From Methanobacteriota archaeon (lineage in GTDB: Archaea; Thermoplasmatota; Thermoplasmata; Methanomassiliicoccales; UBA472): 64,000 nucleotides of DNA. This document shows positions 4,945 through 61,435 of this stretch, piece after piece. The notes under the pieces are model-generated. The model saw nothing but the letters and a program-made list of their open reading frames with translations, was not told the DNA's origin and searched no databases. The stretch lies in NCBI GenBank assembly GCA_021372335.1, contig JAJFUR010000056.1, positions 693-64,692 of the forward strand, in the 5' to 3' direction. How positions within the stretch are numbered: position 1 is the stretch's first letter; each line of letters starts with the position of its first letter. The position numbers and the translations under genes were made by a program.

Positions 4945-6507
<1,563 letters not shown>

Positions 6508-6640: not shown

Positions 6641-7843
6641 ATGAATGACAACTGCATAGCCGCCGTGAAGGTGAACCAGGACCTTTGCAGCCGGTGCAAG
6701 GTCTGCTACTCCACCTGTCCGTTCGAGGCGATCCGCCAGCGCCCGGACGACGGGCGGATCGAGATCGACATCCAGAAGTGCCAGGTATGCGGGATATGCT
6801 ATAGCGCCTGCCCGGTCTCGGCCATCGAGATGGCCTACTACGACCACGCCGGCCTCCTGGAGCACGTGCGGGCCGCCTGTCCCGGGGCGGAGACGCTGGT
6901 CATGATGTGCCGGGGCAATTCCCCCAGCAGCGGCGAGGTGGAGGATATCCTGGCGGACCATGGCCTGGACGTCAAGGGGTACGTCCCCATGCGCGTCCCG
7001 TGCGCGGGGCGGGTGCCCACGGACCTCATCTTCAATGCCCTGGCCTCCGGGATCAGGAACATCGTGTCGATCCAATGCCAGGACGGCTTCTGCCGCATGA
7101 AGGAGGGCACCCGGATCGAGACCAGGAGGCTGCTCCTCAGCAAGGCGGTGCTGCGGCAGCTCGGGTACCCGGAGGACGCGGTGCAGGTCGTCAAGTACTC
7201 GAGGAAGGCGGTGTGGACCGGCCACGAGTGCGTCGGCTGCGACAAATGCGTCTTCGTCTGCCCGTACGGGGCCATCGAGGCCGGGGCGATCTCGTCCCCC
7301 CGCATCGATCCGGGGAAGTGCGTGGGGTGCGGGGCGTGCCAGGTTGTCTGCCCGCACAACGCCATCCAGGTGAAGGGGTACGAGTTCTATTCCGTGCTGC
7401 GCTCCTACGAGGAGGCGGCGGAGCGGATGCGCAAGGCCGGGCGGCCATCGGTCCTGGTGTTCAGCTGCCAGTGGTCCGAGTTCACCGCGCTGGACGACCC
7501 TGAGGGGGTGTTGGGGGGAAGGAACGCCATGCTACTGGAGGTCCCCTGCTTCAAGGGGCTGGACCCCGTGCACGTGCTCACCGCCCTCCAGAGCGGGTTC
7601 GATGGGGTGATGGGGGTAGTGTGCGCACCCGAGGACTGCAAGCTGAAGAACGGCAGGGACGCCGCGGAGAGGCAGCTCGAGGTGCTCCTGATCGCCCTCA
7701 AGAGGCTGGGGCTTTCGGAGCGCTTCGAGCTGCATGAGCTATCCCCCCGATGCAAGGGGGAGTTCGCCCAGGCGTTCGACGCCTTCTACGCCCGGGTCTC
7801 GGCCATGCCCCGCGGCGGGGCATGCCGCAGGGAGGGGGACTGA
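6641..7843 (+). CDS. Polyferredoxin with two MvhD/FlpD-like domains (architecture Fd-MvhD-Fd-MvhD)
   Basis: Four CxxCxxCxxxCP motifs in two pairs (CSRCKVCYSTCP/CQVCGICYSACP and CVGCDKCVFVCP/CVGCGACQVVCP). Each pair is followed by an MvhD-like segment (..VPCAGRV..GIRNIVSIQCQDGFC.. and ..VPCFKGL..GFDGVMGVVCAPEDC..). Confidence 0.75.
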   Translation: MNDNCIAAVKVNQDLCSRCKVCYSTCPFEAIRQRPDDGRIEIDIQKCQVCGICYSACPVSAIEMAYYDHAGLLEHVRAACPGAETLVMMCRGNSPSSGEVEDILADHGLDVKGYVPMRVPCAGRVPTDLIFNALASGIRNIVSIQCQDGFCRMKEGTRIETRRLLLSKAVLRQLGYPEDAVQVVKYSRKAVWTGHECVGCDKCVFVCPYGAIEAGAISSPRIDPGKCVGCGACQVVCPHNAIQVKGYEFYSVLRSYEEAAERMRKAGRPSVLVFSCQWSEFTALDDPEGVLGGRNAMLLEVPCFKGLDPVHVLTALQSGFDGVMGVVCAPEDCKLKNGRDAAERQLEVLLIALKRLGLSERFELHELSPRCKGEFAQAFDAFYARVSAMPRGGACRREGD

Positions 7844-8683
7844 ATGTACCGGATAGTGGCAAAGGAGCGTCTGGCGTACAAGCACACCTTGTTCACCGTG
7901 GAGGCCCCCGACATCGCCGCCAAGGCAAGGCCGGGGCAGTTCCTGATCGTGGTACCGAAGGAGGGAGGGGAAAGGGTGCCCCTCAGCCTCTGCGCCTACG
8001 ACCAGGAGGCGGGCACGGTCTCGTTCGCCTTCCACGAGGTCGGGAGGACCACGAAGGAGCTCGGAACGCTCCAGGAGGGGGAGGGGCTGTTCAACGTCAC
8101 CGGCCCCCTTGGCAACCCTTCCGAGGTCCGGAGGTACGGCAGGGTGCTGTGCATCGGCGGGGGCATCATGATCGCCCCCGCCCTGCTGCAGGCCAGGGCG
8201 CTGAAGGAGGCGGGGAACGAGGTCATCACCATCCTCGCCTGCCGCAGCGCGGAGTTCCTGTTCAAGAGGGAGGAGGCCGAGCGCGTCAGCGACCGGGTGC
8301 TCATCGCCTCGGACGACGGGACCGTGGGGGAGAGGGGACTGGACTTCCTGACAGACCTTCTTGCCAAGGACCGGATCGACCGTTGCACCGTGATCGGCCC
8401 GGTGGTCATGATGAAGAGGGTCTGCGAGCTCACCCGCCCGTTCGCCGTCCCCACCATCGTCTCCCTGACCCCGATCATGATCGACGGCATGGGCATGTGC
8501 GGGGCGTGCCGGGTGACCGTCGGGGACAGGATGCTCTTCGGATGCGTGGACGGGCCCGAGTTCGACGGCCATAGGACCAACTTCGACGAGCTGATCAAGC
8601 GGCAGCGCAGCATGCTGCCCGAGGAACGCCTCAGCTCCATGCTCTGGGAGCACAAGGGAGGGTGCGCCTGTGGCCGGAGATGA
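7844..8683 (+). CDS. NfnA/SudB-like subunit (PyrK-type FAD/[2Fe-2S] oxidoreductase)
   Basis: PyrK-like fold signature: RPGQFLIV, GPLGNP, CIGGGIMIAP, and a C-terminal cluster motif DGMGMCGACRV..GCVDGPEF. It starts 1 nt after the upstream stop. Confidence 0.8.
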   Translation: MYRIVAKERLAYKHTLFTVEAPDIAAKARPGQFLIVVPKEGGERVPLSLCAYDQEAGTVSFAFHEVGRTTKELGTLQEGEGLFNVTGPLGNPSEVRRYGRVLCIGGGIMIAPALLQARALKEAGNEVITILACRSAEFLFKREEAERVSDRVLIASDDGTVGERGLDFLTDLLAKDRIDRCTVIGPVVMMKRVCELTRPFAVPTIVSLTPIMIDGMGMCGACRVTVGDRMLFGCVDGPEFDGHRTNFDELIKRQRSMLPEERLSSMLWEHKGGCACGRR

Positions 8684-10106
8684 GCCCTCCCGGCGGAGGA
8701 ACGACAGGGCATTGGACGAGGACGTCCCCATGCCGCGCCAGGACCCCAAGGAGCGGGTCAAGAACTTCAAGGAGGTCGCCCTCGGGTACACCGAGGAGAT
8801 GGCGGTGGCGGAGGCCCGGCGCTGCCTCAAATGCAAGAGCCCGCAGTGTCAGAAGGGGTGCCCGGTGGAGGTGCCCATCCCCCAGTTCATCGACTGCATC
8901 GTCCAGGGGAGGTATGAGGAGGGGATAGCCCTCATCAAGTCCAAGAACGCCCTCCCCGCGGTGTGCGGCCGGGTGTGCCCGCAGGAGCAGCAATGCCAGA
9001 TGAACTGCGTCCGGGGCAAGAGGGGCGACCCGGTCAACATCGGTCGCCTGGAGCGCTTCCTGGCGGACTGGGAGCGGGAGCATGGCGTGCGTGTGCCGGA
9101 ACGCCCCGCGGCCACGGGCAGGAGGGTGGCCATCATCGGGGCCGGGCCCTCCGGGCTTACCGCCGCCTCCGACCTCGCCCGGCTGGGCCATGGGGTCACG
9201 CTGTTCGAGGCGCTTCACGTGGCCGGGGGGGTGCTCATGTACGGCATTCCGGAGTTCCGGCTGCCGAAGGAGATCGTGCAGAGGGAGGTGGAGTACGTCC
9301 AGAGCCTTGGCGTAGACCTCCGCCTCGGGAACGTCATAGGGCGCATCGCCACCATCCCCGAGCTGCTGGAACAGGGGTATGATGCGGTATACATAGCGAG
9401 CGGGGCGGGCCTGCCCCAATGGACGGGGTGCCCGGGAGAGAATCTCGGAGGGATCTATTCGGCCAACGAGTTCCTGATCAGGGCCAACCTGATGAAGGCC
9501 TATCGCTTTCCGGAGACCGACACGCCCCTTCGCATAGGCAAGCATGTGGTGGTGATCGGCGGGGGGAACGTGGCCATGGACTGCGCGCGCATCTCCATGC
9601 GGCTGGGGGCGAAGGTGTGCCTGAACTACCGGCGCTCAAGGAACGAGCTGCCCGCCCGGCGCGAGGAGATCGAGAACGCGGAGGAGGAGGGGCTGACCTG
9701 CAACTTCCTCAACGCCCCGGCGGAGTTCTACGGGGACGAGAAAGGGTGGGTGCGGGCGATGCGCTGCACCTGCATGGAGCTCACCGAACCGGACGAGAGG
9801 GGGAGGACGGGGGTGAGGCCCATCGCCTGCTCGGACTTCGAGATGGAGACGGACACCGTGATCGTGGCGATAGGGCAGACGCCCAATCCCATCATCCAGA
9901 GGACGACCGAGGGGCTCAGGACCAATCCCCGGAACGGGACTATCATCGTGGACGAGGACGGCCGGACGAACCTGGAGGGGGTCTTTGCCGGCGGGGACGT
10001 GGCCACGGGGGCGGCCACGGTCATCAGCGCCATGGGCGCCGGGAAGAGGACCGCCAGGGCTATCCATGAATACCTAACGACCGGACCAAGGGGGGACCGT
10101 ACATAG
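8670..10106 (+). CDS. NfnB/SudA/GltD-like subunit (FAD, NADPH, 2x[4Fe-4S])
   Basis: RCLKCKSPQCQKGCPVEVPIP, NALPAVCGRVCPQEQQC, and dinucleotide folds VAIIGAGPSGL and VVVIGGGNVAMDCA. Alternative start at 8730 (MPRQDPKERVKNF). Confidence 0.85.
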   Translation: MAGDEPSRRRNDRALDEDVPMPRQDPKERVKNFKEVALGYTEEMAVAEARRCLKCKSPQCQKGCPVEVPIPQFIDCIVQGRYEEGIALIKSKNALPAVCGRVCPQEQQCQMNCVRGKRGDPVNIGRLERFLADWEREHGVRVPERPAATGRRVAIIGAGPSGLTAASDLARLGHGVTLFEALHVAGGVLMYGIPEFRLPKEIVQREVEYVQSLGVDLRLGNVIGRIATIPELLEQGYDAVYIASGAGLPQWTGCPGENLGGIYSANEFLIRANLMKAYRFPETDTPLRIGKHVVVIGGGNVAMDCARISMRLGAKVCLNYRRSRNELPARREEIENAEEEGLTCNFLNAPAEFYGDEKGWVRAMRCTCMELTEPDERGRTGVRPIACSDFEMETDTVIVAIGQTPNPIIQRTTEGLRTNPRNGTIIVDEDGRTNLEGVFAGGDVATGAATVISAMGAGKRTARAIHEYLTTGPRGDRT

Positions 10107-10117
10107 AGAAGCTGAAG

Positions 10118-11080
10118 GTGGCGTTCTATTGGGCCGCCAGCTGCGGCGGCTGCGAGATAGCGGTCCTGGACACGAACGAGAAGGTCCTGGAGCTGGCGGA
10201 GCACGCGGACATCGTGTTCTGGCCGGTGGCCATGGACATCAAGTACAAGGACGTCGAGGCGTTCCCCGATGGATACGTGGACGTGACCTTCTTCAATGGC
10301 TCCGTGCGGAACAGCGAGCAGGAGCACATGGCGAAGGTCCTGCGGGCGAAGTCGAAGATCCTGGTCGCATTCGGGGCCTGCGCCAACCAGGGCTCCGTCC
10401 CCGGCCTCGCGAACCTATGGTCCGCGGACGAGCTCCTGGACCACGTGTACCTGGAGGTCAGCGGGGGAAGGCACAATGGCTCGGCCGTCCCCAGGCCCGA
10501 GGCCGAGGTGAGGGAGGGCACGCTCCGCCTCCCGGTCCTCTACGACACCGTCAAGACGCTGGACCAGACCGTGGCGGTGGACTATTATCTTCCCGGATGC
10601 CCTCCGCCGGTGGAGCTGATCAAGCGGGCGATCGATGCCATACTGCAGGGGACACTGCCCCCACGGGGGTCCGTGCTCGCCCCCCTCACCGCCGTGTGCG
10701 CGGAATGCCCGCGCAAGCGGGAGGACAAGCGGATCACGGCCATCCATCGGGTGCACGAGGTCGTGCCCGCCCCGGAGCGCTGCCTTATGGAGCAGGGGAT
10801 AGTCTGCATGGGCATGGCCACCCGGGGAGGGTGCGGGGCGCAGTGCCTGAAGGTGGACATGCCCTGCACCGGCTGCGGAGGGCCCGCCCCGAACCGGCCG
10901 GACATGGGGACGGGCATGCTGACCGCCCTGGCATCCATCCTCCACCTGGACAAGGAGCCGGGCACGTACACGGAGGAGGAGGTCATGGAACTCATGGCCC
11001 AGATCAAGGACCCGGTCGGCCTCTTCTACATGTACAGCCTGCCCGCGTCGATCCTCAAGAGGAAGGTGATGAAGCGATGA
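10118..11080 (+). CDS. mvhG: [NiFe]-hydrogenase small subunit, Mvh (group 3) type
   Basis: GTG start. AFYWAASCGGCEIAVLD proximal-cluster motif, GACANQGSVPG, YLPGCPP, and a C-terminal Cys-rich cluster region. Confidence 0.8.
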   Translation: MAFYWAASCGGCEIAVLDTNEKVLELAEHADIVFWPVAMDIKYKDVEAFPDGYVDVTFFNGSVRNSEQEHMAKVLRAKSKILVAFGACANQGSVPGLANLWSADELLDHVYLEVSGGRHNGSAVPRPEAEVREGTLRLPVLYDTVKTLDQTVAVDYYLPGCPPPVELIKRAIDAILQGTLPPRGSVLAPLTAVCAECPRKREDKRITAIHRVHEVVPAPERCLMEQGIVCMGMATRGGCGAQCLKVDMPCTGCGGPAPNRPDMGTGMLTALASILHLDKEPGTYTEEEVMELMAQIKDPVGLFYMYSLPASILKRKVMKR

Positions 11081-12528
11081 AGGAGATCAACATAGACCCG
11101 ATCACCCGGCTGGAGGGGCATGGCAGCATATCCATCTTCCTCAACGACGAGGGAGAGGTGGAGAACGCCTACCTGAAGATCCCCGAGCTCAGGGGGTTCG
11201 AGGCGTTCTGCGTGGGCCGGCCGGCGGAGCTGATGCCCATCCTGACGACGCGCATCTGCGGCGTCTGCCCGGTCGCCCATCACCTGGCGGCCGTCAAGAC
11301 GTTGGACGCGTGCTTCAACGTCGAACCCCCGCCTGCGGCGAGGAAGCTGCGCGAACTCCAGTACATGGGGTACATCTGCTACGACCACATCCTGCACTTC
11401 TACTACCTCGGCGGGCCGGACTTCATCGTGGGGCCGGACGCGCCCCCGGAGAAGAGGAACATCCTGGGCGTGATCGAGAAGGCTGGGATGGACGTGGCCA
11501 AGGACGTCATCCGGCATCGGGCGTACGGGCAGCGGATCACGGAGATCATCGGGGGGAAGGCCACGCACCCCGTCAGCGGGCTTCCAGGGGGGGTGAGCAA
11601 ACCGCTGGACGAGGAGGGGCGCAGGGCCATACTGGACATGGCCAGGTCCCTTGTGGGCTTCGCCCAGTTCTCCCTCGCTACGTTCCATGAGCTGGTGCTC
11701 GGCAACCCCGGGTACATGGACCTCATCCGCAGCGACATGTTCACCCAGAGGACCTACTACATGGGGATGGTGGACGCCCGGAACAGGGTGAGCTTCTGCG
11801 ATGGGAAGGTCAGGGTCGTGGACCCGGCCGGCTCGGAGTTCGCCAAGTTCGATGCCCAGGACTATAAGGAGCACATCGAGGAGCGGTCGGAGGAATGGAC
11901 CTACTCCAAGTTCCCCTTCCTCAGGAAGGTGGGGTGGAAGGGCTTCACCGACGGGAAGGACAACGGCGCCTACAGGGTCGGCCCGCTCGGCCGGTTGAAC
12001 GCCGCGGAGGGGATGGCCACTCCTCTGGCAAACAAGGAGTACCAGGAGCTGTTCTCCCTTTTAGGTAGGCCGGTGCACAGCACCCTGGCCTTCCATTGGG
12101 CGAGGCTCATCGAGCTGCTGTACGCGGCCGAGAGGGCGGTGGAGCTCGCCAGCGACCCGGAGATCACCTCTCCGGACGTGCGGAATATGCCCGGGGAGCC
12201 TGGGCGCGGGGTCGGAATCGTTGAAGCGGCCCGGGGCACCCTGGTGCATGACTATCAGCTCAACAGCGACGCGCTGGTCGAGCGTGTCAACATGATCGTG
12301 GCGACCACCAACAATTACCCGTCCATCTGCATGAGCGTCCGGGATGCCGCCAAAGGGCTGATCCACGGCGGGAAGGTCGACGAACGGGTGCTGAACAAGG
12401 TGGAGATGGCCTTCCGCGCCTACGACCCCTGCTTCGGCTGCGCCACGCACTTCGCCGTGGGGCAGATGCCCCTGGACGTGAAGGTGTACGACCATCGCAA
12501 AGGGCTGCTATGCCAGCTGGGCCGTTGA
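11077..12528 (+). CDS. mvhA: [NiFe]-hydrogenase large subunit, MvhA-like
   Basis: ATGA overlap with the mvhG stop. N-terminal ITRLEGHG, L1 motif RICGVCPVAHHLAAV, and C-terminal DPCFGCATH followed by a cleavable tail. The track ORF 10129-12528 is this frame with a false 316-aa N-terminal extension. Confidence 0.9.
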   Translation: MKEINIDPITRLEGHGSISIFLNDEGEVENAYLKIPELRGFEAFCVGRPAELMPILTTRICGVCPVAHHLAAVKTLDACFNVEPPPAARKLRELQYMGYICYDHILHFYYLGGPDFIVGPDAPPEKRNILGVIEKAGMDVAKDVIRHRAYGQRITEIIGGKATHPVSGLPGGVSKPLDEEGRRAILDMARSLVGFAQFSLATFHELVLGNPGYMDLIRSDMFTQRTYYMGMVDARNRVSFCDGKVRVVDPAGSEFAKFDAQDYKEHIEERSEEWTYSKFPFLRKVGWKGFTDGKDNGAYRVGPLGRLNAAEGMATPLANKEYQELFSLLGRPVHSTLAFHWARLIELLYAAERAVELASDPEITSPDVRNMPGEPGRGVGIVEAARGTLVHDYQLNSDALVERVNMIVATTNNYPSICMSVRDAAKGLIHGGKVDERVLNKVEMAFRAYDPCFGCATHFAVGQMPLDVKVYDHRKGLLCQLGR

Positions 12529-12566: not shown

Positions 12567-13064
12567 ATGCGGATGGACGAAGGGAAAGAACTGGAGGGCG
12601 CGCTCAGGGAATGGCTCGCCGGGGCGGGAACGGTGGTTGTGGCCGGGATAGGGAATCCCATCCGCCGGGACGACCACGCAGGGGTGAGGGTCGTCGAGGG
12701 GTTGAGGGGCGCCGTCTCGCCGCGCGTGCACCTTATCGAGTGCGAGACGGTGCCGGAGAGCTTCGTGGATGAGATAGTGGATGTCTCCCCGACGCACGTG
12801 CTCCTTATAGATGCAGCCCTCCTCGGCCTCCCCCCCGGGACCGTGGACCTCTATGACGTGGAGGAGGTCGCGGCCACCGCGGGCATAGCGACGCATGCCC
12901 TTCCCCTGCGCGTGCTCTGTGAGTACGTCACCCTGCTCACCGGGGCGAGGATCGCCCTTCTGTTGATCGAGCCGGAGGACACCGGCTTCGGGGAGGGCAT
13001 GACCCCCGGGCTTGAGGCGGCGACCCGACGCACGGTAGGAATGCTGACGGCTTTGCTACCATGA
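12567..13064 (+). CDS. Hydrogenase maturation endopeptidase (HycI/FrhD family)
   Basis: VVAGIGNPIRRDDHAGVRV motif, with the HALPL region later. 165 aa, immediately downstream of the large subunit. Confidence 0.8.
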   Translation: MRMDEGKELEGALREWLAGAGTVVVAGIGNPIRRDDHAGVRVVEGLRGAVSPRVHLIECETVPESFVDEIVDVSPTHVLLIDAALLGLPPGTVDLYDVEEVAATAGIATHALPLRVLCEYVTLLTGARIALLLIEPEDTGFGEGMTPGLEAATRRTVGMLTALLP

Positions 13065-13143: not shown

Positions 13144-13311
13144 TTACTTGGAGAGCGCGCTGTTCGGGCACTCGTCCACGCAGGTGCCGCACTCGGTGCA
13201 CTTCACGGCGTCGATGACGGCTATATCGTCAACGGTTATGGCCCCGTTAGGGCATGCATCCTCGCAAAGTCCGCAACCAACACACTCGTCCGCATTAACC
13301 TTTACAGCCAT
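13144..13311 (-). CDS. 2x[4Fe-4S] ferredoxin, 55 aa (absent from ORF track)
   Basis: My own translation of the minus strand: [55 protein letters not shown]. It has two CxxCxxCxxxCP motifs and a TATA-like ATATATAC ~40 nt upstream. The plus-strand ORFs 13117-13791 and 13124-13327 are shadows. Confidence 0.85.
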
Positions 13312-27912: not shown

Positions 27913-28022
27913 CGCCTTCCGGCCTATTTAGTTTTGATTCGTCCCTGCGCCCTTGAGCAGGGCGGCGAAGCGTTGATTAGGGGACATCCCGTTCCTTGCA
28001 AGAAGGTGATTGTCTGGGCCGG

Positions 28023-28856
28023 ATGACGATGCTCTACGTTCGCGCCATCAAGGGCGGGTTTGGCCACCGCTTCGCATTGGCCAGGCTGACCAGGTGGCCG
28101 CTCCTGGGGCGGGCCGTGGACAGGGCGCTCTTCGACGGGGACGAGATCTACGTCCTTCCGAAGGGGTCCTCCGTCACGCTTAGGGAGATTCCCCTGGACA
28201 TTCCAGTGCCAGACCGGGAGGACGTTGTCCTCCCGTCGGAGATCGTTCGATACTTCATCGAGCGCTCCAAGCACCACTTCATTATGGACCGCTGCATCTG
28301 CCGCACATCGGCGCACTGCCGGGACTACCCGCACGAGCTGGGATGCATCTTCCTGGGCAAGGCGGTGCTTGCCATCGATCCCCGGCTGGGGCGATTGGTG
28401 AGCAAGGAGGAGGCACTGGCCCATCTTGACCGATGCGAGGAAGCAGGCTTGGTGCATATCATAGGGCGCAACAAGCTGGACAGTATATGGACGGCGGGAA
28501 GGCCCAAGGAGGACCTGATGACCGTTTGCAATTGCTGTCCCTGCTGCTGCCTTTGGAAGATGCTTCCGCAGTTGGATGAGGGCATCTCGAGCAAGATGAA
28601 ACGTCTTCCGGGCGTCCATCTGACAGTGGACGCGGCCAGGTGCACCGGTTGCGGGACATGCGTGGACGGATGCTACGTGCGCGCCATCTCCATGAGGGAA
28701 GGGCGGGCCGTTATAGACCAGGCCATGTGCAAGGGCTGCGCCCGATGCGCCCATGCCTGCCCGGAGAAGGCCATCACCCTCCACATCGAGGACGGAAGCT
28801 ATTCGATGCATGCGGTGGAACGGATCGCCCCCTTGGTGGACGTGACGAAGGACTGA
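28023..28856 (+). CDS. Cys-rich Fe-S protein with a C-terminal 2x[4Fe-4S] ferredoxin domain
   Basis: CTGCGTCVDGC and CKGCARCAHACP motifs, plus an unusual CNCCPCCC cluster and CICRTSAHC. ATG 28023 is preferred to GTG 27996. Confidence 0.65.
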   Translation: MTMLYVRAIKGGFGHRFALARLTRWPLLGRAVDRALFDGDEIYVLPKGSSVTLREIPLDIPVPDREDVVLPSEIVRYFIERSKHHFIMDRCICRTSAHCRDYPHELGCIFLGKAVLAIDPRLGRLVSKEEALAHLDRCEEAGLVHIIGRNKLDSIWTAGRPKEDLMTVCNCCPCCCLWKMLPQLDEGISSKMKRLPGVHLTVDAARCTGCGTCVDGCYVRAISMREGRAVIDQAMCKGCARCAHACPEKAITLHIEDGSYSMHAVERIAPLVDVTKD

Positions 28857-57344: not shown

Positions 57345-57457
57345 AAGGTCACTTGCACCCTCATAAAAGGAGGGGATTAAATAGGTTGGCCTCTGCCCTG
57401 AAGGACCGCAGGTCAAATGATTTATTAGCTGGCAACCCTTGCCTTTGCCGGAGAGGA

Positions 57458-60400
57458 ATGAGCGAGGCAGAGCGATTGGTCTCCGATAGGGCCGAGGTGT
57501 GGAAGGGCAGGTTGTTGGACGTTTCCAACCGCAATCCTCTCATCAGGTTCCGCCGGTTAAAGGGCTCGGTGCTGAGCGTTGTCCTCCCCGACGCCGCCAC
57601 CCTGTTCAGCGAGCTGAGGCAGGGACGGCAGTACACCGTGGTGCATTCCCCTGAGCCTCTGGAGGAGGCCGGGACCGGCCGGCTCATGGTCGCCGCCCAG
57701 GTCCCCGAGCAGCCCGTGGACAAGGTCCTCTACACCCTCCGCAGTAGGGCGCGCATCTACCGCAATGACCATGGGGTGAACATATTGTACGTGGCGTTCG
57801 GCTCGCTCCTTTGGAACGATGCCAGTTCTGGAGAGACCAACGAATCCCCGCTCTTCCTGGTGCCCGTGGCCCTTGAGCGGCAGAACTCCTTCACCCCCTA
57901 TCGCTTGCAGCCACTGGACGAGGACACGGTCCTCAACCCGAGCCTGCGGAAGCGGCTGGAGCTGGACCACCGGATCCGGCTTCCGGAGATCGAGCTGGAG
58001 AACGGGCTCGACCTGCCGAAAGCCATGGGGATGGTGGCGGCCGCGATCCCGCCGGCGTCCGGATGGAGGGTAGAGGGCTCCTGCCACCTGGCCCTTTTCC
58101 ATTTCTCCAAGCTCCTCATGTACTCGGACCTTGAGCAGGGGGCCGGAACGCTGTCCTCGCATCCGGTCATAAGGGCATTGGCAGGGGACCCTGCGGCCCT
58201 TCCGCCCGAGCCTTCCGGCCTCCCGCGTCCGGAGGAGTACGACTCCAAGCTCAGGCCGGAGGATTCCTTTCATGTCCTGGACTCGGACTCGAGCCAGCTC
58301 GAGGCGGTGCAGGCAGCCCTGGCCGGCGTCAGCTTCGTCCTGCAAGGCCCGCCCGGCACTGGAAAGAGCCAGACGATCACCAACATGATCTCGGAGCTCA
58401 TCGCCCATGGGAAGCGTGTGCTCTTCGTCTCGCAGAAGATGGCCGCCCTGGACGTGGTGCGGGGGAACCTCGAGCGGTGCGGGCTAGGCGACATGTGCCT
58501 GGAGCTGCATGACCCCAAGAGGAGCAGGGCGGAGATCATCAAGGAGATAGCGACCGGCCTGGAAGATGCTGGACGATCGGGCGGCGCGGCCGTCGACGCC
58601 CAAGAGCTCGTCGAGGTCCGCCGGGAACTCGATGGGTACGTCAGGGCGTTGCATATGCCCCGAGGGAGGCTTGGCACCAGCGTGTACAGGATGATCGGCC
58701 AATACGCTGAGCTCACCGGGACGCCGGACCTATGCTTTGATCTGCCTGGCGCGCTGGAGGTGGACGAAGAACGGGCGAGGCGTATGGAGGGGACGGTCCT
58801 CCGCCTATCCCAGATGGCCTCGGCCTTCAGGGAACCCACCCATCCATGGGCGGGCGCCCTGGTCACCGAGTGGAGCGACCGGCTGCAGGCCAAGGTGCAG
58901 GAGGAGCTCTCCGCATTGATGGCCGCCCACGGGCGGCTCTGCACGGCGCTCCCGGCATTGACGATCCCCTTCGGTCTGCCCGAGCCGGTGTCCCTCCCGG
59001 AAGTGCGCCGGCTCCGCCAGCTGTTCAAAGACATGGCCGAGCGACCAAGGGTCCGCCGGGAATGGCTCGAGGGGGACCTCGACCTGCTGATGACCATGGT
59101 AAGGGATGGGCTCGCCTCCTTCCAGGACCTCTTGGGGAAAGAGGGCAGGCTGTCGGGGATGGGGGCCCGGGACATCCTCGACCTGGACGGACGTGGTCTG
59201 CGCCATAGGTTTGACGGAGAGCACACCGGCCCGTTCCGGGCGCTGAAGGGGCGCTATCGACAGGACATGCGGACGCTGCGGACGGCCTCCGGGCGTCGCC
59301 TCAGCTTTGAGGAGGCCCGGTTCCTGGTCCGTGCGGTGGACGACTACCAACAGGCGTTGGCGGCCTGGAAGGTGCGCCGGGACGCCCTTATGACCGCCCT
59401 GCGGGGAGAGTTCTTAGGGGACGGCCAGGAGCTGGAGGCGCTGTCCGAGCGACTGGAATGGACCAAGGCATTCCGTTCCAAGCACGCCCTTTTGATGAGC
59501 GAGCGGGTGATCGACGCGGTCACGGCCGAAGAGATACCACGGGAGGTCGGGCAGGGGGCGATGGAACTGGAGCTGCGCATGGACGACCTAGACGCCGCCT
59601 TGAGCGCCTTCGCGGCCCGCTTCACCGCGGACCTTCGCCTCAATGGACGGCCCCTCCAGGATGCGGCGCTCAAGGACCTTGAGGAATGGACGGAGAGGGC
59701 CTGGGCCTGCCGCCACAGGTACCAGGAATGGCTGGACCTCTCCTCCCTCCTTTTGGCCATGCGGGCCCTGGGGCTCGAAGGGCTGCTCAAGGAGCTGCGG
59801 GAGGGCTCCCTACCTCCCGAGGACTTTGTGAAGGGCTTCCAACGGCGGTTCTACAGGCTATGGACCGAGGAGGCCCTGGCCTCCGATCCTACGCTTACAG
59901 GTTTCCGTCGGGACCGCCAGATGGGGCTGATAGCGCGCTTCGACGAGCTTGACCGGAAGTACGTGGAGGGGAGCAGGGCGCGCGTGCGAGCCCGCGCGGA
60001 GGCCAACCTGAGGAGGGAGATGGAGGGCCCGGCCCACTCCATGCTCCTCAAGCAGGAGATGGAGATCGCCCGCCTGTCCAAGCTGAAGCGGCAGCGGAAG
60101 GCCATCAAGGCAATGCTGGCCGAGTGCTGGGACCTCGTTGGGCTGCTCAAGCCTTGCATGCTCATGAGCCCGCTCTCCGTGGCCCAGTTCCTGGACAGGG
60201 AAAGGACGCGCTTTGACGTTATCATCTTCGATGAGGCGTCCCAGATCTGCCCCGAGGATGCCATAGGCTCGATCGTCAGGGGGAGGCAGCTCATCGTGGT
60301 GGGGGACAGCAAGCAGCTGCCCCCCACCTCGTTCTTCGCCCTCGCGGCCGAGGACGAGGACGCCGAACCGGACCTTGAGAGCATCCTCGACGAGTGCGAG

Positions 60401-61435
60401 ACCTGTGGGATGCCTCGGCGTATGTTGATGTGGCACTATCGCTCCAAGGACGAGTCGCTGATCGCATTCTCCAATCATCAGTTCTATGGCGGAAGGCTGA
60501 ACACCTTCCCGAGCCCCCTCTTCGGGCGGGAGGGCTACGGTGTCCATCATGTCCTCGTTCCCAACGGGACCTTCGACCGGGGAAGGACCAGAACCAACAG
60601 GGAGGAGGCGAGGGCGGTCGCGGGAATGGTCCGCGACCATTACGCCCTGAAGGACGGGAGGAGCCTCGGGGTGATCGCCTTCTCGGAGGCGCAGATGGAG
60701 GCCATCGACCAGGCGTTGGACGAGCTGAGAAGTGGGGACGAGAAGCTGGACGCGGCGCTGTCCTCGGAGGAGGGGGAGCCGTTCCTGCTGTATAACCTCG
60801 AGAACGTGCAGGGGCATGAGCGGGACCGCATCATCCTGAGCGTCGGCTACGGAAGGGATGAGAACGGCAGATTCCCGTTGAACCTGGGGCCGCTGAACAG
60901 GGAGGGAGGGGAAAGGAGGCTGAACGTCGCGATCACCAGGGCGCGGCTCTGTTTGGACGTGGTCTCCTCCGTCCGGTCCGAGGAGATCGACCTAGGGGGC
61001 TCGAGCAGCGCCGGGGCCCGGCTGCTCAAGCAGTACCTGGCCTTTGCAGAGGCCGGAGGGGACCGCCGGGCGCTGCCGGTCCAATCGGATAGGCTCCGGG
61101 AGGACCCGTCCCCGTTCGTGGAACATCTGGCCAAGGCCTTGCAGGCCAGGGGGCACCGGGTGCGAACGAATGTGGGGACGTCCGACTACCGCGTGGACCT
61201 GGCCATCGAGGACCCTGCCGAGGAGGGGAGATATATATTGGGCATCGAGTGCGACGGCGCCCATTACCTTTCCGGAAGGACTGTTCGGGATAGGGACCGC
61301 ACCCGCCAGGGGCAGCTTAGGAGGCTTGGCTGGACGCTGCACCGTGTCTGGAGCGTCGAATGGTTCCGGGATCCGGAGGGGGAGATGGAGAGGATAGAGG
61401 AGGCGCTGCGCGCTAGGGGGCGATGCGCCCCTTGA
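57458..61435 (+). CDS. Large SF1 (Upf1/DNA2-like) helicase with a DUF4011-type N-terminus and a C-terminal PD-(D/E)xK (DUF559/Vsr-like) nuclease fold
   Basis: N-terminus LLDVSNRNPLIRF. Walker A GPPGTGKSQT, motif II IIFDEASQI, VVGDSKQLPP, WHYRSKDESL, VQGHERDRIILS, LNVAITRAR. C-terminal YRVDLAI..ILGIECDGAHY..RDRDRTRQGQLRRLGW. 1325 aa from ATG 57458 (GGAGAGGA SD). Confidence 0.8.
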   Translation: MSEAERLVSDRAEVWKGRLLDVSNRNPLIRFRRLKGSVLSVVLPDAATLFSELRQGRQYTVVHSPEPLEEAGTGRLMVAAQVPEQPVDKVLYTLRSRARIYRNDHGVNILYVAFGSLLWNDASSGETNESPLFLVPVALERQNSFTPYRLQPLDEDTVLNPSLRKRLELDHRIRLPEIELENGLDLPKAMGMVAAAIPPASGWRVEGSCHLALFHFSKLLMYSDLEQGAGTLSSHPVIRALAGDPAALPPEPSGLPRPEEYDSKLRPEDSFHVLDSDSSQLEAVQAALAGVSFVLQGPPGTGKSQTITNMISELIAHGKRVLFVSQKMAALDVVRGNLERCGLGDMCLELHDPKRSRAEIIKEIATGLEDAGRSGGAAVDAQELVEVRRELDGYVRALHMPRGRLGTSVYRMIGQYAELTGTPDLCFDLPGALEVDEERARRMEGTVLRLSQMASAFREPTHPWAGALVTEWSDRLQAKVQEELSALMAAHGRLCTALPALTIPFGLPEPVSLPEVRRLRQLFKDMAERPRVRREWLEGDLDLLMTMVRDGLASFQDLLGKEGRLSGMGARDILDLDGRGLRHRFDGEHTGPFRALKGRYRQDMRTLRTASGRRLSFEEARFLVRAVDDYQQALAAWKVRRDALMTALRGEFLGDGQELEALSERLEWTKAFRSKHALLMSERVIDAVTAEEIPREVGQGAMELELRMDDLDAALSAFAARFTADLRLNGRPLQDAALKDLEEWTERAWACRHRYQEWLDLSSLLLAMRALGLEGLLKELREGSLPPEDFVKGFQRRFYRLWTEEALASDPTLTGFRRDRQMGLIARFDELDRKYVEGSRARVRARAEANLRREMEGPAHSMLLKQEMEIARLSKLKRQRKAIKAMLAECWDLVGLLKPCMLMSPLSVAQFLDRERTRFDVIIFDEASQICPEDAIGSIVRGRQLIVVGDSKQLPPTSFFALAAEDEDAEPDLESILDECETCGMPRRMLMWHYRSKDESLIAFSNHQFYGGRLNTFPSPLFGREGYGVHHVLVPNGTFDRGRTRTNREEARAVAGMVRDHYALKDGRSLGVIAFSEAQMEAIDQALDELRSGDEKLDAALSSEEGEPFLLYNLENVQGHERDRIILSVGYGRDENGRFPLNLGPLNREGGERRLNVAITRARLCLDVVSSVRSEEIDLGGSSSAGARLLKQYLAFAEAGGDRRALPVQSDRLREDPSPFVEHLAKALQARGHRVRTNVGTSDYRVDLAIEDPAEEGRYILGIECDGAHYLSGRTVRDRDRTRQGQLRRLGWTLHRVWSVEWFRDPEGEMERIEEALRARGRCAP

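Follow-up and report, generated by a model that had tools for sequence, protein, structure and literature searches.

A 64,000-nucleotide stretch of DNA from a Methanomassiliicoccales archaeon (the window, at its full length) encodes, at 6641-7843, a 400-residue protein that consists of one unit repeated in tandem, a 2x[4Fe-4S] ferredoxin (Fd) domain followed by an MvhD/FlpD-like domain. We call this protein the adaptor. Its gene is the first in an operon of the order adaptor-nfnA-nfnB-mvhG-mvhA-hycI, and, judging from its sequence and its neighbours, we think it rather probable that the adaptor connects an Mvh-type [NiFe] hydrogenase with NfnAB rather than with HdrABC, so that H2 is coupled to NADP(H). 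The adaptor itself would most likely be a soluble Fe-S electron-transfer subunit. Annotations usually label group 3c (Mvh-type) hydrogenases "heterodisulfide-reductase-linked"; the present locus suggests that they have another, conserved partner in an Nfn-type NADP(H) module, to which a dedicated, duplicated Fd-MvhD connector would join them. Domain composition, cluster-ligand conservation, operon content and synteny were observed directly, and from them we infer the stoichiometry, bifurcation, docking sites, reaction and direction of the proposed complex.

The doubled adaptor and its cysteines

The initial annotation, made from the sequence alone, described an internally duplicated Fd-MvhD-Fd-MvhD protein, and profile scans bore out this architecture. 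On the whole adaptor, the Pfam profile FlpD (PF02662) matched two stretches (E 1.7e-33, 115.6 bits, with a curated gathering cutoff of 22.3 bits) and Fer4 matched four. Scanned alone, repeat 1 (residues 66-194) matched FlpD over profile positions 30-102 only (E 2e-11, 44.4 bits), and repeat 2 (residues 247-400) over positions 1-122 (E 2.3e-21, 76.5 bits). Both scores exceed the cutoff, which disposes of the possibility, raised at the outset, that neither segment resembles MvhD/FlpD. The two halves of the adaptor align with each other at 27% identity over 174 residues (E 3e-12), and the internal duplication is therefore not a chance effect. The gene and its domains are as follows.

6641..7843, plus strand: doubled Fd-MvhD adaptor gene, whole open reading frame (ORF), ATG start, 400 residues
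6665..6838, plus strand: ferredoxin domain 1 (residues 9-66), two CxxCxxCxxxC motifs (C16/19/22/26 and C47/50/53/57), Fer4
6878..7207, plus strand: MvhD-like domain 1 (residues 80-189), FlpD E 2e-11, MvhD 7bkb_F E 3e-4
7208..7381, plus strand: ferredoxin domain 2 (residues 190-247), C197/200/203/207 and C227/230/233/237, Fer4
7430..7816, plus strand: MvhD-like domain 2 (residues 264-392), full length, FlpD E 2.3e-21, MvhD 5odc_D E 8e-8

An AlphaFold2 (AF2) model of the adaptor, built with 64 homologues, had a pLDDT of 79.7 and a pTM of 0.74, and its best fold match in the PDB by Foldseek was MvhD 5ODH_D of the Mvh-Hdr crystal structure (E 1.6e-7, TM-score on target 0.77, rmsd 2.9 Å). The repeats thus share both fold and family (PF02662) with MvhD, VhuD and ElpC. 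The solved chains of that family are single domains of 134-141 residues, in agreement with the roughly 140 residues given for stand-alone MvhD in the initial annotation, whereas the 400-residue adaptor is ferredoxin-fused and duplicated. Aligned to the solved chains, MvhD-like domain 1 has a diverged N-terminus and an 11-residue insertion, and is without the MvhD C-terminal helix. The NCBI record of the adaptor is MCE5261397.1, "hydrogenase iron-sulfur subunit [Euryarchaeota archaeon]".

Among NCBIfam models, the adaptor matched best not MvhD but HdrA2, over its C-terminal tail; HdrA2 is the HdrA-MvhD fusion exemplified by Methanosarcina acetivorans HdrA2B2C2 (PMC5296606). Two stretches matched positions 576-771 of the 777 in NF040770 (E 2.6e-45); as the match covers the tail region only and scores 154.8 bits against a cutoff of 1100, the adaptor falls outside type Ia HdrA/HdrA2 (HdrA types as classified in PMC12054007). 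Both ferredoxin domains matched the C-terminal ferredoxin domain of HdrA in the PDB (8rvu_a 586-652, with E 1.6e-10 for ferredoxin domain 1; 5odc_A 578-644; 7bkb_A 598-653). Similarly, HdrA-MvhD fusions in the databases matched both adaptor units at 28-32% identity over about 190 residues, and the tail of a Bathyarchaeia fusion matched unit 1 and unit 2 equally (E 1e-20 to 1e-22). The units are colinear with the Fd+MvhD tail of HdrA2, and each is therefore taken to be a copy of the HdrA-tail conduit. In MvhAGD-HdrABC, electrons pass from H2 to MvhG, then to MvhD, to the C-terminal ferredoxin domain of HdrA and on to the flavin. At the level of sequence, the adaptor is this Fd+MvhD conduit of HdrA, free-standing and present twice. 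Unlike HdrA2, it lacks the thioredoxin-reductase-like FAD core, the N-terminal cluster domain and the inserted ferredoxin domain. Nor is it a polyferredoxin of the MvhB/VhuB kind, since the VhuB model reached only 52 bits (E 3.4e-14) against a cutoff of 600, and the adaptor has only two ferredoxin domains, which are interleaved with MvhD domains.

The motifs quoted in the initial annotation are all present: VMMCRGN (residues 87-93) and VFSCQWS (residues 273-279) near the N-termini of the MvhD-like domains, and the distal VPCAGR..QCQDGFC (residues 119-151) and VPCFKG..VCAPEDC (residues 301-333). Their N-terminal divergence from the CCxxC start given for canonical MvhD seemed to imply that [2Fe-2S] ligation is doubtful. 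We aligned both repeats with five solved chains, namely MvhD of M. thermolithotrophicus, M. marburgensis and M. hungatei, ElpC and VhuD. PDB chains of the MvhD/VhuD/ElpC family include 5ODC_D, 9SW2_D, 7BKB_F, 8RVU_F and 9SFI_K. Four cysteines are common to all five aligned chains (C13, C42/44, C67/68 and C72/73). Their equivalents are C90, C121, C146 and C151 in repeat 1 and C276, C303, C328 and C333 in repeat 2, so that the distal cysteines (the last three of each set) are retained, as had been claimed. HMMER aligned repeat 1 to MvhD over the core only; to position the cysteine near its N-terminus, we used the match between repeats 1 and 2 together with MAFFT.

Among 137 aligned relatives, which include 17 distant representatives at 29-59% identity, 24 cysteines are invariant, those of the four CxxCxxCxxxC motifs and four in each MvhD domain; other cysteines vary. 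In the AF2 model, the four cysteines of each repeat lie at equivalent positions, at strand ends and in loops. Since all four common cysteines are kept in both repeats, the adaptor is predicted to carry four [4Fe-4S] and two [2Fe-2S] clusters. A loss of ligands was rejected on the strength of the alignment and of the invariance in relatives. The CCxxC start is itself found in canonical MvhD but not universally: its first cysteine, Cys12, is Ile in M. hungatei MvhD (ICNWC) and Val in VhuD (VCYQ(X)), and is therefore not a general ligand.

The residue missing from the repeats is the HdrA-facing Cys16, not a predicted cluster ligand. Cys16 is replaced by Asn in repeat 1 and by Ser in repeat 2, His68 by Gln or Ala, and Asp71 by Phe in repeat 1, while repeat 2 retains it. 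In MvhD, Cys16 is an additional, non-ligand cysteine facing the HdrA flavin, and His68 and Asp71 belong to the same MvhD-HdrA flavin interface (PMC13580544). The canonical arrangement, in which Cys16 with His68/Asp71 faces the HdrA Cys pair and FAD, is absent from the adaptor. The HdrA-fused MvhD domain in an adaptor-bearing Bathyarchaeia genome reads SCSEC and retains the CxxC, which both adaptor repeats lack.

Operon content and gene neighbourhoods

The five genes after the adaptor, and two genes that flank the operon on the other strand, are listed here.

7844..8683, plus strand: NfnA-like small subunit (FAD, [2Fe-2S]), PRK06222 E 3e-100, P. furiosus NfnI 5jca_S E 1.9e-74
8670..10106, plus strand: NfnB-like large subunit (bifurcating FAD, two [4Fe-4S], NADPH site), TIGR01316 E 8e-179, T. 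maritima 4ylf_B E 1e-157
10118..11080, plus strand: MvhG-type [NiFe]-hydrogenase small subunit, MvhG 5odc_E E 1.7e-65, full length
11077..12528, plus strand: MvhA-type [NiFe]-hydrogenase large subunit, VhuA E 2e-121, 7t2r_D 1e-110, 9sfi_g 1e-107, 5odc_F 3e-104
12567..13064, plus strand: HycI-type hydrogenase maturation endopeptidase, TIGR00072 E 3e-28
13144..13311, minus strand: 55-residue clostridial-type 2x[4Fe-4S] ferredoxin, 80 bp after hycI and convergent with the operon
4945-6492, minus strand: glutamate dehydrogenase (GDH), divergent, upstream of the operon, listed ORF of 515 residues

The nfnA and nfnB products are close homologues of T. maritima NfnAB (4YLF) and P. furiosus NfnI (5JCA), encoded by adjacent genes and with complete cofactor motifs. 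The NfnA homologue retains the D/C/C/C [2Fe-2S] motif of 5jca_S, and all cluster Cys/Glu residues of the NfnB homologue align with those of 4ylf_B; the window enzyme presumably uses the same NADPH-linked bifurcating FAD. Canonical Nfn has two subunits and works with free ferredoxin, whereas the window type always comes after the doubled adaptor gene and, in the window lineage, before the genes of a [NiFe] hydrogenase. These additional conserved subunits speak for a modified enzyme.

The hydrogenase is of the group 3c MvhA/MvhG type, with VhuA (E 2e-121) and VhuG (E 2.6e-60) as its best NCBIfam models. The mvhA gene truly begins at 11077, with MKEINID. Its product, the large subunit, resembles 7t2r_D about as much as it does Mvh/Vhu, and group 3b/3d small subunits match the window MvhG over its N-terminal part only. 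The heterodisulfide-reductase linkage of group 3c is missing from the operon, which has nfnAB, not hdrABC, and no other hdr gene; the rest of the 64-kb window likewise contains no hdr gene and no HdrA core. Membership of the group 3b sulfhydrogenases was considered and rejected, as the HydG/HydD/HydA models scored far below the Mvh/Vhu and Nfn models. P. furiosus SHI (a group 3b, NADP-reducing sulfhydrogenase) and the electron-bifurcating NiFe-HydABCSL (7T2R) are functional analogues of the window hydrogenase as we read it: soluble [NiFe] enzymes with Fe-S and flavin subunits that couple them to NAD(P)(H). However, SHI has an AsrAB-like and HydABCSL a NuoEF-like diaphorase in place of NfnAB, both are without an MvhD-type connector, and the small subunit in the window is of the long MvhG type.

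The adaptor TGA stop directly abuts the nfnA ATG (window 7841-7846), with the stretch GGAGGGGGA just upstream, and mvhA and mvhG share 4 nt, the ATG of the one overlapping the stop of the other (11077-11080). These tight junctions are consistent with translational coupling of the operon.

Relatives of the adaptor are encoded in 176 stretches of GTDB species-representative genomes. We surveyed 80 of these as loci, with 8 closer sequences as seeds, and the survey is accordingly biased to the Nfn-linked subfamily. A database clustered at 90% identity gave 1519 matches, including more than 120 full-length relatives of about 400 residues (61-98% identity); the full-length relatives belong to Methanomassiliicoccales and to Bathyarchaeia metagenome-assembled genomes, and all are generically named. 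An exhaustive search of 50%-identity representatives found 43 clusters at E <= 1e-30, some 17 of them full-length and doubled, down to 29% identity. The proviso had been made that the architecture might turn out to be a common, already-named subunit of a known complex. Common it is, with at least 176 species-level genomes, but databases call it 'hydrogenase iron-sulfur subunit' or 'F420-non-reducing hydrogenase subunit D', and no characterised complex that includes it was found.

When the window proteins were searched against the 80 loci by tblastn, adaptor, NfnA and NfnB were adjacent and co-oriented in every locus with enough downstream sequence. NfnAB thus stands in the place that HdrABC has in the canonical genomic association of MvhD. 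In Methanomassiliicoccales-type loci, MvhG-MvhA(-HycI) came directly next in 21/21 with enough downstream sequence, and GDH lay upstream of the operon in 13/23. A 40%-identical relative from another lineage heads an identical six-gene operon. The small ferredoxin gene is conserved near the operon in nine related loci and in two arrangements, either after the operon (L004, L005, L007, L008, L009 and L011, 76-89% identity) or upstream of the adaptor (L035, L038 and L039, 67% identity). Its product may be a soluble redox partner of the complex. The 515-residue GDH ORF is probably over-extended at its N-terminus, the homologue in L003 having 444 residues.

The 57 Bathyarchaeia-labelled loci are arranged differently. 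In nearly all of them a thioredoxin reductase gene precedes adaptor-NfnAB on the same strand, and this reductase is genuine (TIGR01292 E 7e-102, CGVCDG motif; L001 4885-5820). An acyl-CoA ligase and hypF-hypC-hypD follow adaptor-NfnAB within a few kb in 31 loci (L001 11602-16961). MvhGA was found 3 kb downstream only in L070 and L081. In L091, traced separately and likewise with MvhGA 3 kb downstream, one strand carries TrxR-adaptor-NfnA-NfnB-acyl-CoA synthetase-MvhG-MvhA-HdrA/MvhD-HdrC-HdrB, and in another Bathyarchaeia genome the Nfn-adaptor and Mvh-Hdr modules lie about 11 kb apart. In Bathyarchaeia, then, a free mvhD is missing beside the hydrogenase genes, which have both an Nfn-adaptor and an Hdr module as neighbours. 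What group 3c hydrogenases do in non-methanogenic Bathyarchaeia has been called unclear (PMC9534799). The region L091 1-21458, like L090, is a redox island with two HdrA-MvhD fusions (about 790-800 residues) and an HdrD-like Fer4+CCG protein. Farther downstream in this island are GcvH, a 572-residue fusion of an NfnB-like protein with ferredoxin, a 247-residue FlpD protein and a 1011-residue HdrA-like protein.

NADPH consumers thus flank the operon in both groups, GDH in Methanomassiliicoccales and thioredoxin reductase in Bathyarchaeia, and hint weakly at NADPH supply as the physiological role.

More distant doubled relatives (31-41% identity) adjoin genes for MetF and a MetV-like protein (DUF5981) instead of nfnAB, in L084, L086, L087, L088 and L089. 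In L088 the order is FTR-adaptor-MetV/MetF fusion-MvhG-MvhA, beside cdh genes. Across proteins, unit 1 shares a mean of 38% identity with other unit 1s and 25.6% (maximum 32.2%) with unit 2, and unit 2 a mean of 35.8% with its counterparts across subfamilies. As unit 1 is closer to other unit 1s than to unit 2, the duplication predates the split of the Nfn-linked and MetVF-linked subfamilies. The L088 cluster means that an Mvh hydrogenase and a flavoenzyme recur together around the doubled connector, and this recurrence is the strongest comparative argument for a hydrogenase-to-flavoenzyme wire. The gene content of the sister clusters suggests an H2-linked methylene-tetrahydropterin reductase. 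Known MetVF complexes also have an MvhD-type connector to other redox modules; the sister clusters differ from them in the doubled Fd-MvhD protein, in MvhGA (L088) and in having no HdrABC, and the window adaptor in being Nfn-linked, not MetVF-linked.

Fusions were uninformative as to partners, since the extensions of longer relatives (P0130, P0133, P0135 and others) contain no Nfn, MetF or hydrogenase domain. P0174 (435 residues) has an unrelated MvhD architecture, with an N-terminal [2Fe-2S] Fer2_4 domain, a NuoG/HydA-type Fe-S region, ferredoxin domains and FlpD. Its domain order indicates that MvhD modules are also fused to other hydrogenase- or NuoG-like wires.

All the parts of the system are known, namely MvhD, the HdrA ferredoxin domain, NfnAB and MvhAG. 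In full-text literature and in reviews of Nfn and flavin-based electron bifurcation (FBEB), we found no description of a free-standing duplicated connector, of its invariant pairing with NfnAB or of an Mvh-Nfn operon; this absence is no proof of novelty. The adaptor-NfnAB-Mvh combination is widespread in Methanomassiliicoccales and Bathyarchaeia and, it appears, undescribed so far.

Proposed electron path and competing explanations

How might the adaptor work? We propose that the HdrA conduit was detached, duplicated and set beside NfnAB, and that adaptor, NfnA, NfnB, MvhG and MvhA would form one soluble complex. One MvhD-like domain would dock on MvhG, as MvhD does, and the six clusters would form a wire whose far end plugs into NfnAB. 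The presumed role of the adaptor, a connector from a hydrogenase small subunit to a flavoenzyme, is that of MvhD, VhuD and ElpC, except that the partner genes are nfnAB. It also agrees with the early suggestion of an electron wire or an adaptor for two partners, which fits a conserved operon with NfnAB and MvhGA. The probable entry point would be the distal [4Fe-4S] cluster of NfnB, the normal site of free ferredoxin and the most accessible point; the chemistry would then be H2 (+ NADH) <-> 2 NADPH, or simple H2:NADP+ exchange. Alternatively, electrons may enter at NfnA, where H2 would take the part of NADH; the ferredoxin site would then stay open, in keeping with the conserved small ferredoxin gene. 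Either way, NADP(H) would be the partner of H2 oxidation or evolution, with NAD(H) and/or ferredoxin as a possible third substrate via the Nfn bifurcating FAD.

If this is true, Methanomassiliicoccales and Bathyarchaeia have a direct H2/NADPH link. To our knowledge, Methanomassiliicoccales are without the usual F420-based route to NADPH, and such a link would be useful to them. The MetVF-linked sister subfamily would bear on the electron supply of archaeal Wood-Ljungdahl pathways without Mer. A wider version of the proposal would make MvhAG-(Fd-MvhD)2-NfnAB a third, so far unrecognised type of bifurcating/confurcating hydrogenase, beside HydABC/Bfu-type and MvhAGD-HdrABC, in which the bifurcating FAD of Nfn would tie H2 to NADP(H) together with ferredoxin and/or NAD(H). 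The adaptor family would then be a general plug through which Mvh-type hydrogenases power flavoenzymes such as NfnAB and MetVF in Bathyarchaeia, Methanomassiliicoccales and other Wood-Ljungdahl archaea. We put this version forward tentatively and think it doubtful.

Several observations weigh against a hydrogenase-Nfn complex. Its formation is read from synteny, and mvhGA is non-adjacent to the adaptor in most Bathyarchaeia loci. The Bathyarchaeia MvhA orthologues that we traced sit in mvhG-mvhA-hdrA(MvhD-fused)-hdrC-hdrB clusters, and in these genomes Hdr may be the main client of the hydrogenase, or the adaptor may be a bridge from Nfn to Hdr. The [2Fe-2S] ligands were identified by elimination and conservation rather than from coordinates. 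The docking point on NfnAB is a guess, and the small ferredoxin gene fits a free NfnB ferredoxin site better. Finally, by an estimate from standard potentials, simple H2-driven NADP+ reduction would be thermodynamically weak at the low H2 pressures typical of such habitats.

In a rival assignment, NfnAB is the main partner of the adaptor, which joins it to any MvhD-binding module available, HdrABC-type, FdhAB-like or MvhAG. NADPH would then give electrons to Hdr-type bifurcation or take them from it, each MvhD-like domain would dock a partner of its own, and the hydrogenase would be facultative. NfnAB is indeed the sole universally adjacent partner, the adaptor-NfnAB genes of Bathyarchaeia share their redox islands with several HdrA-MvhD fusions and with HdrBC/HdrD-like genes, and there is a precedent in VhuD, which is reported to bind either Vhu or Fdh (Costa et al. 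2013, cited in PMC6085437). Against this stand the six-gene operon, which in Methanomassiliicoccales and in the 40%-identical lineage has a hydrogenase and its protease but no hdr gene, the lack of an HdrA core in the window, and the loss from both repeats of the Cys16 of the HdrA flavin interface. We regard this assignment as unlikely.

The asymmetry of the two MvhD-like domains raises the question of whether repeat 1 is a degenerate, cluster-free scaffold, with repeat 2 as the only functional MvhD and a shorter wire with a spacer. Repeat 1 does match FlpD over its core only and with the lower score, its N-terminal segment was left unaligned to MvhD by HMMER, and the C-terminal helix is missing. 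However, C90, C121, C146 and C151 are invariant in all 137 relatives, MetVF-linked subfamily included. They occupy the same secondary-structure positions as those of repeat 2 in the AF2 model, and unit 1 is as conserved across subfamilies as unit 2. A cluster-free repeat 1 is thus very improbable. Least tenable is the idea that the adaptor is an ordinary MvhD of MvhAGD-HdrABC with nfnAB beside it by chance: the database names, the presence of mvhG-mvhA in the same operon and the order of mvhD before mvhGA in classical methanogens (PMC13580544) speak for it, but it is hard to reconcile with nfnAB adjacency in every judgeable locus of two phyla-level lineages, with a doubled, ferredoxin-fused protein that has no Cys16, and with the absence of hdr genes from the operon.

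Two further genes of the window were noted. A 286-residue protein (27996-28856, plus strand) with a CNCCPCCC run and a C-terminal 2x[4Fe-4S] ferredoxin domain surfaced as a secondary match of HdrA-like queries, and a 1360-residue ORF (57353-61435, plus strand) has a gene-like codon composition.

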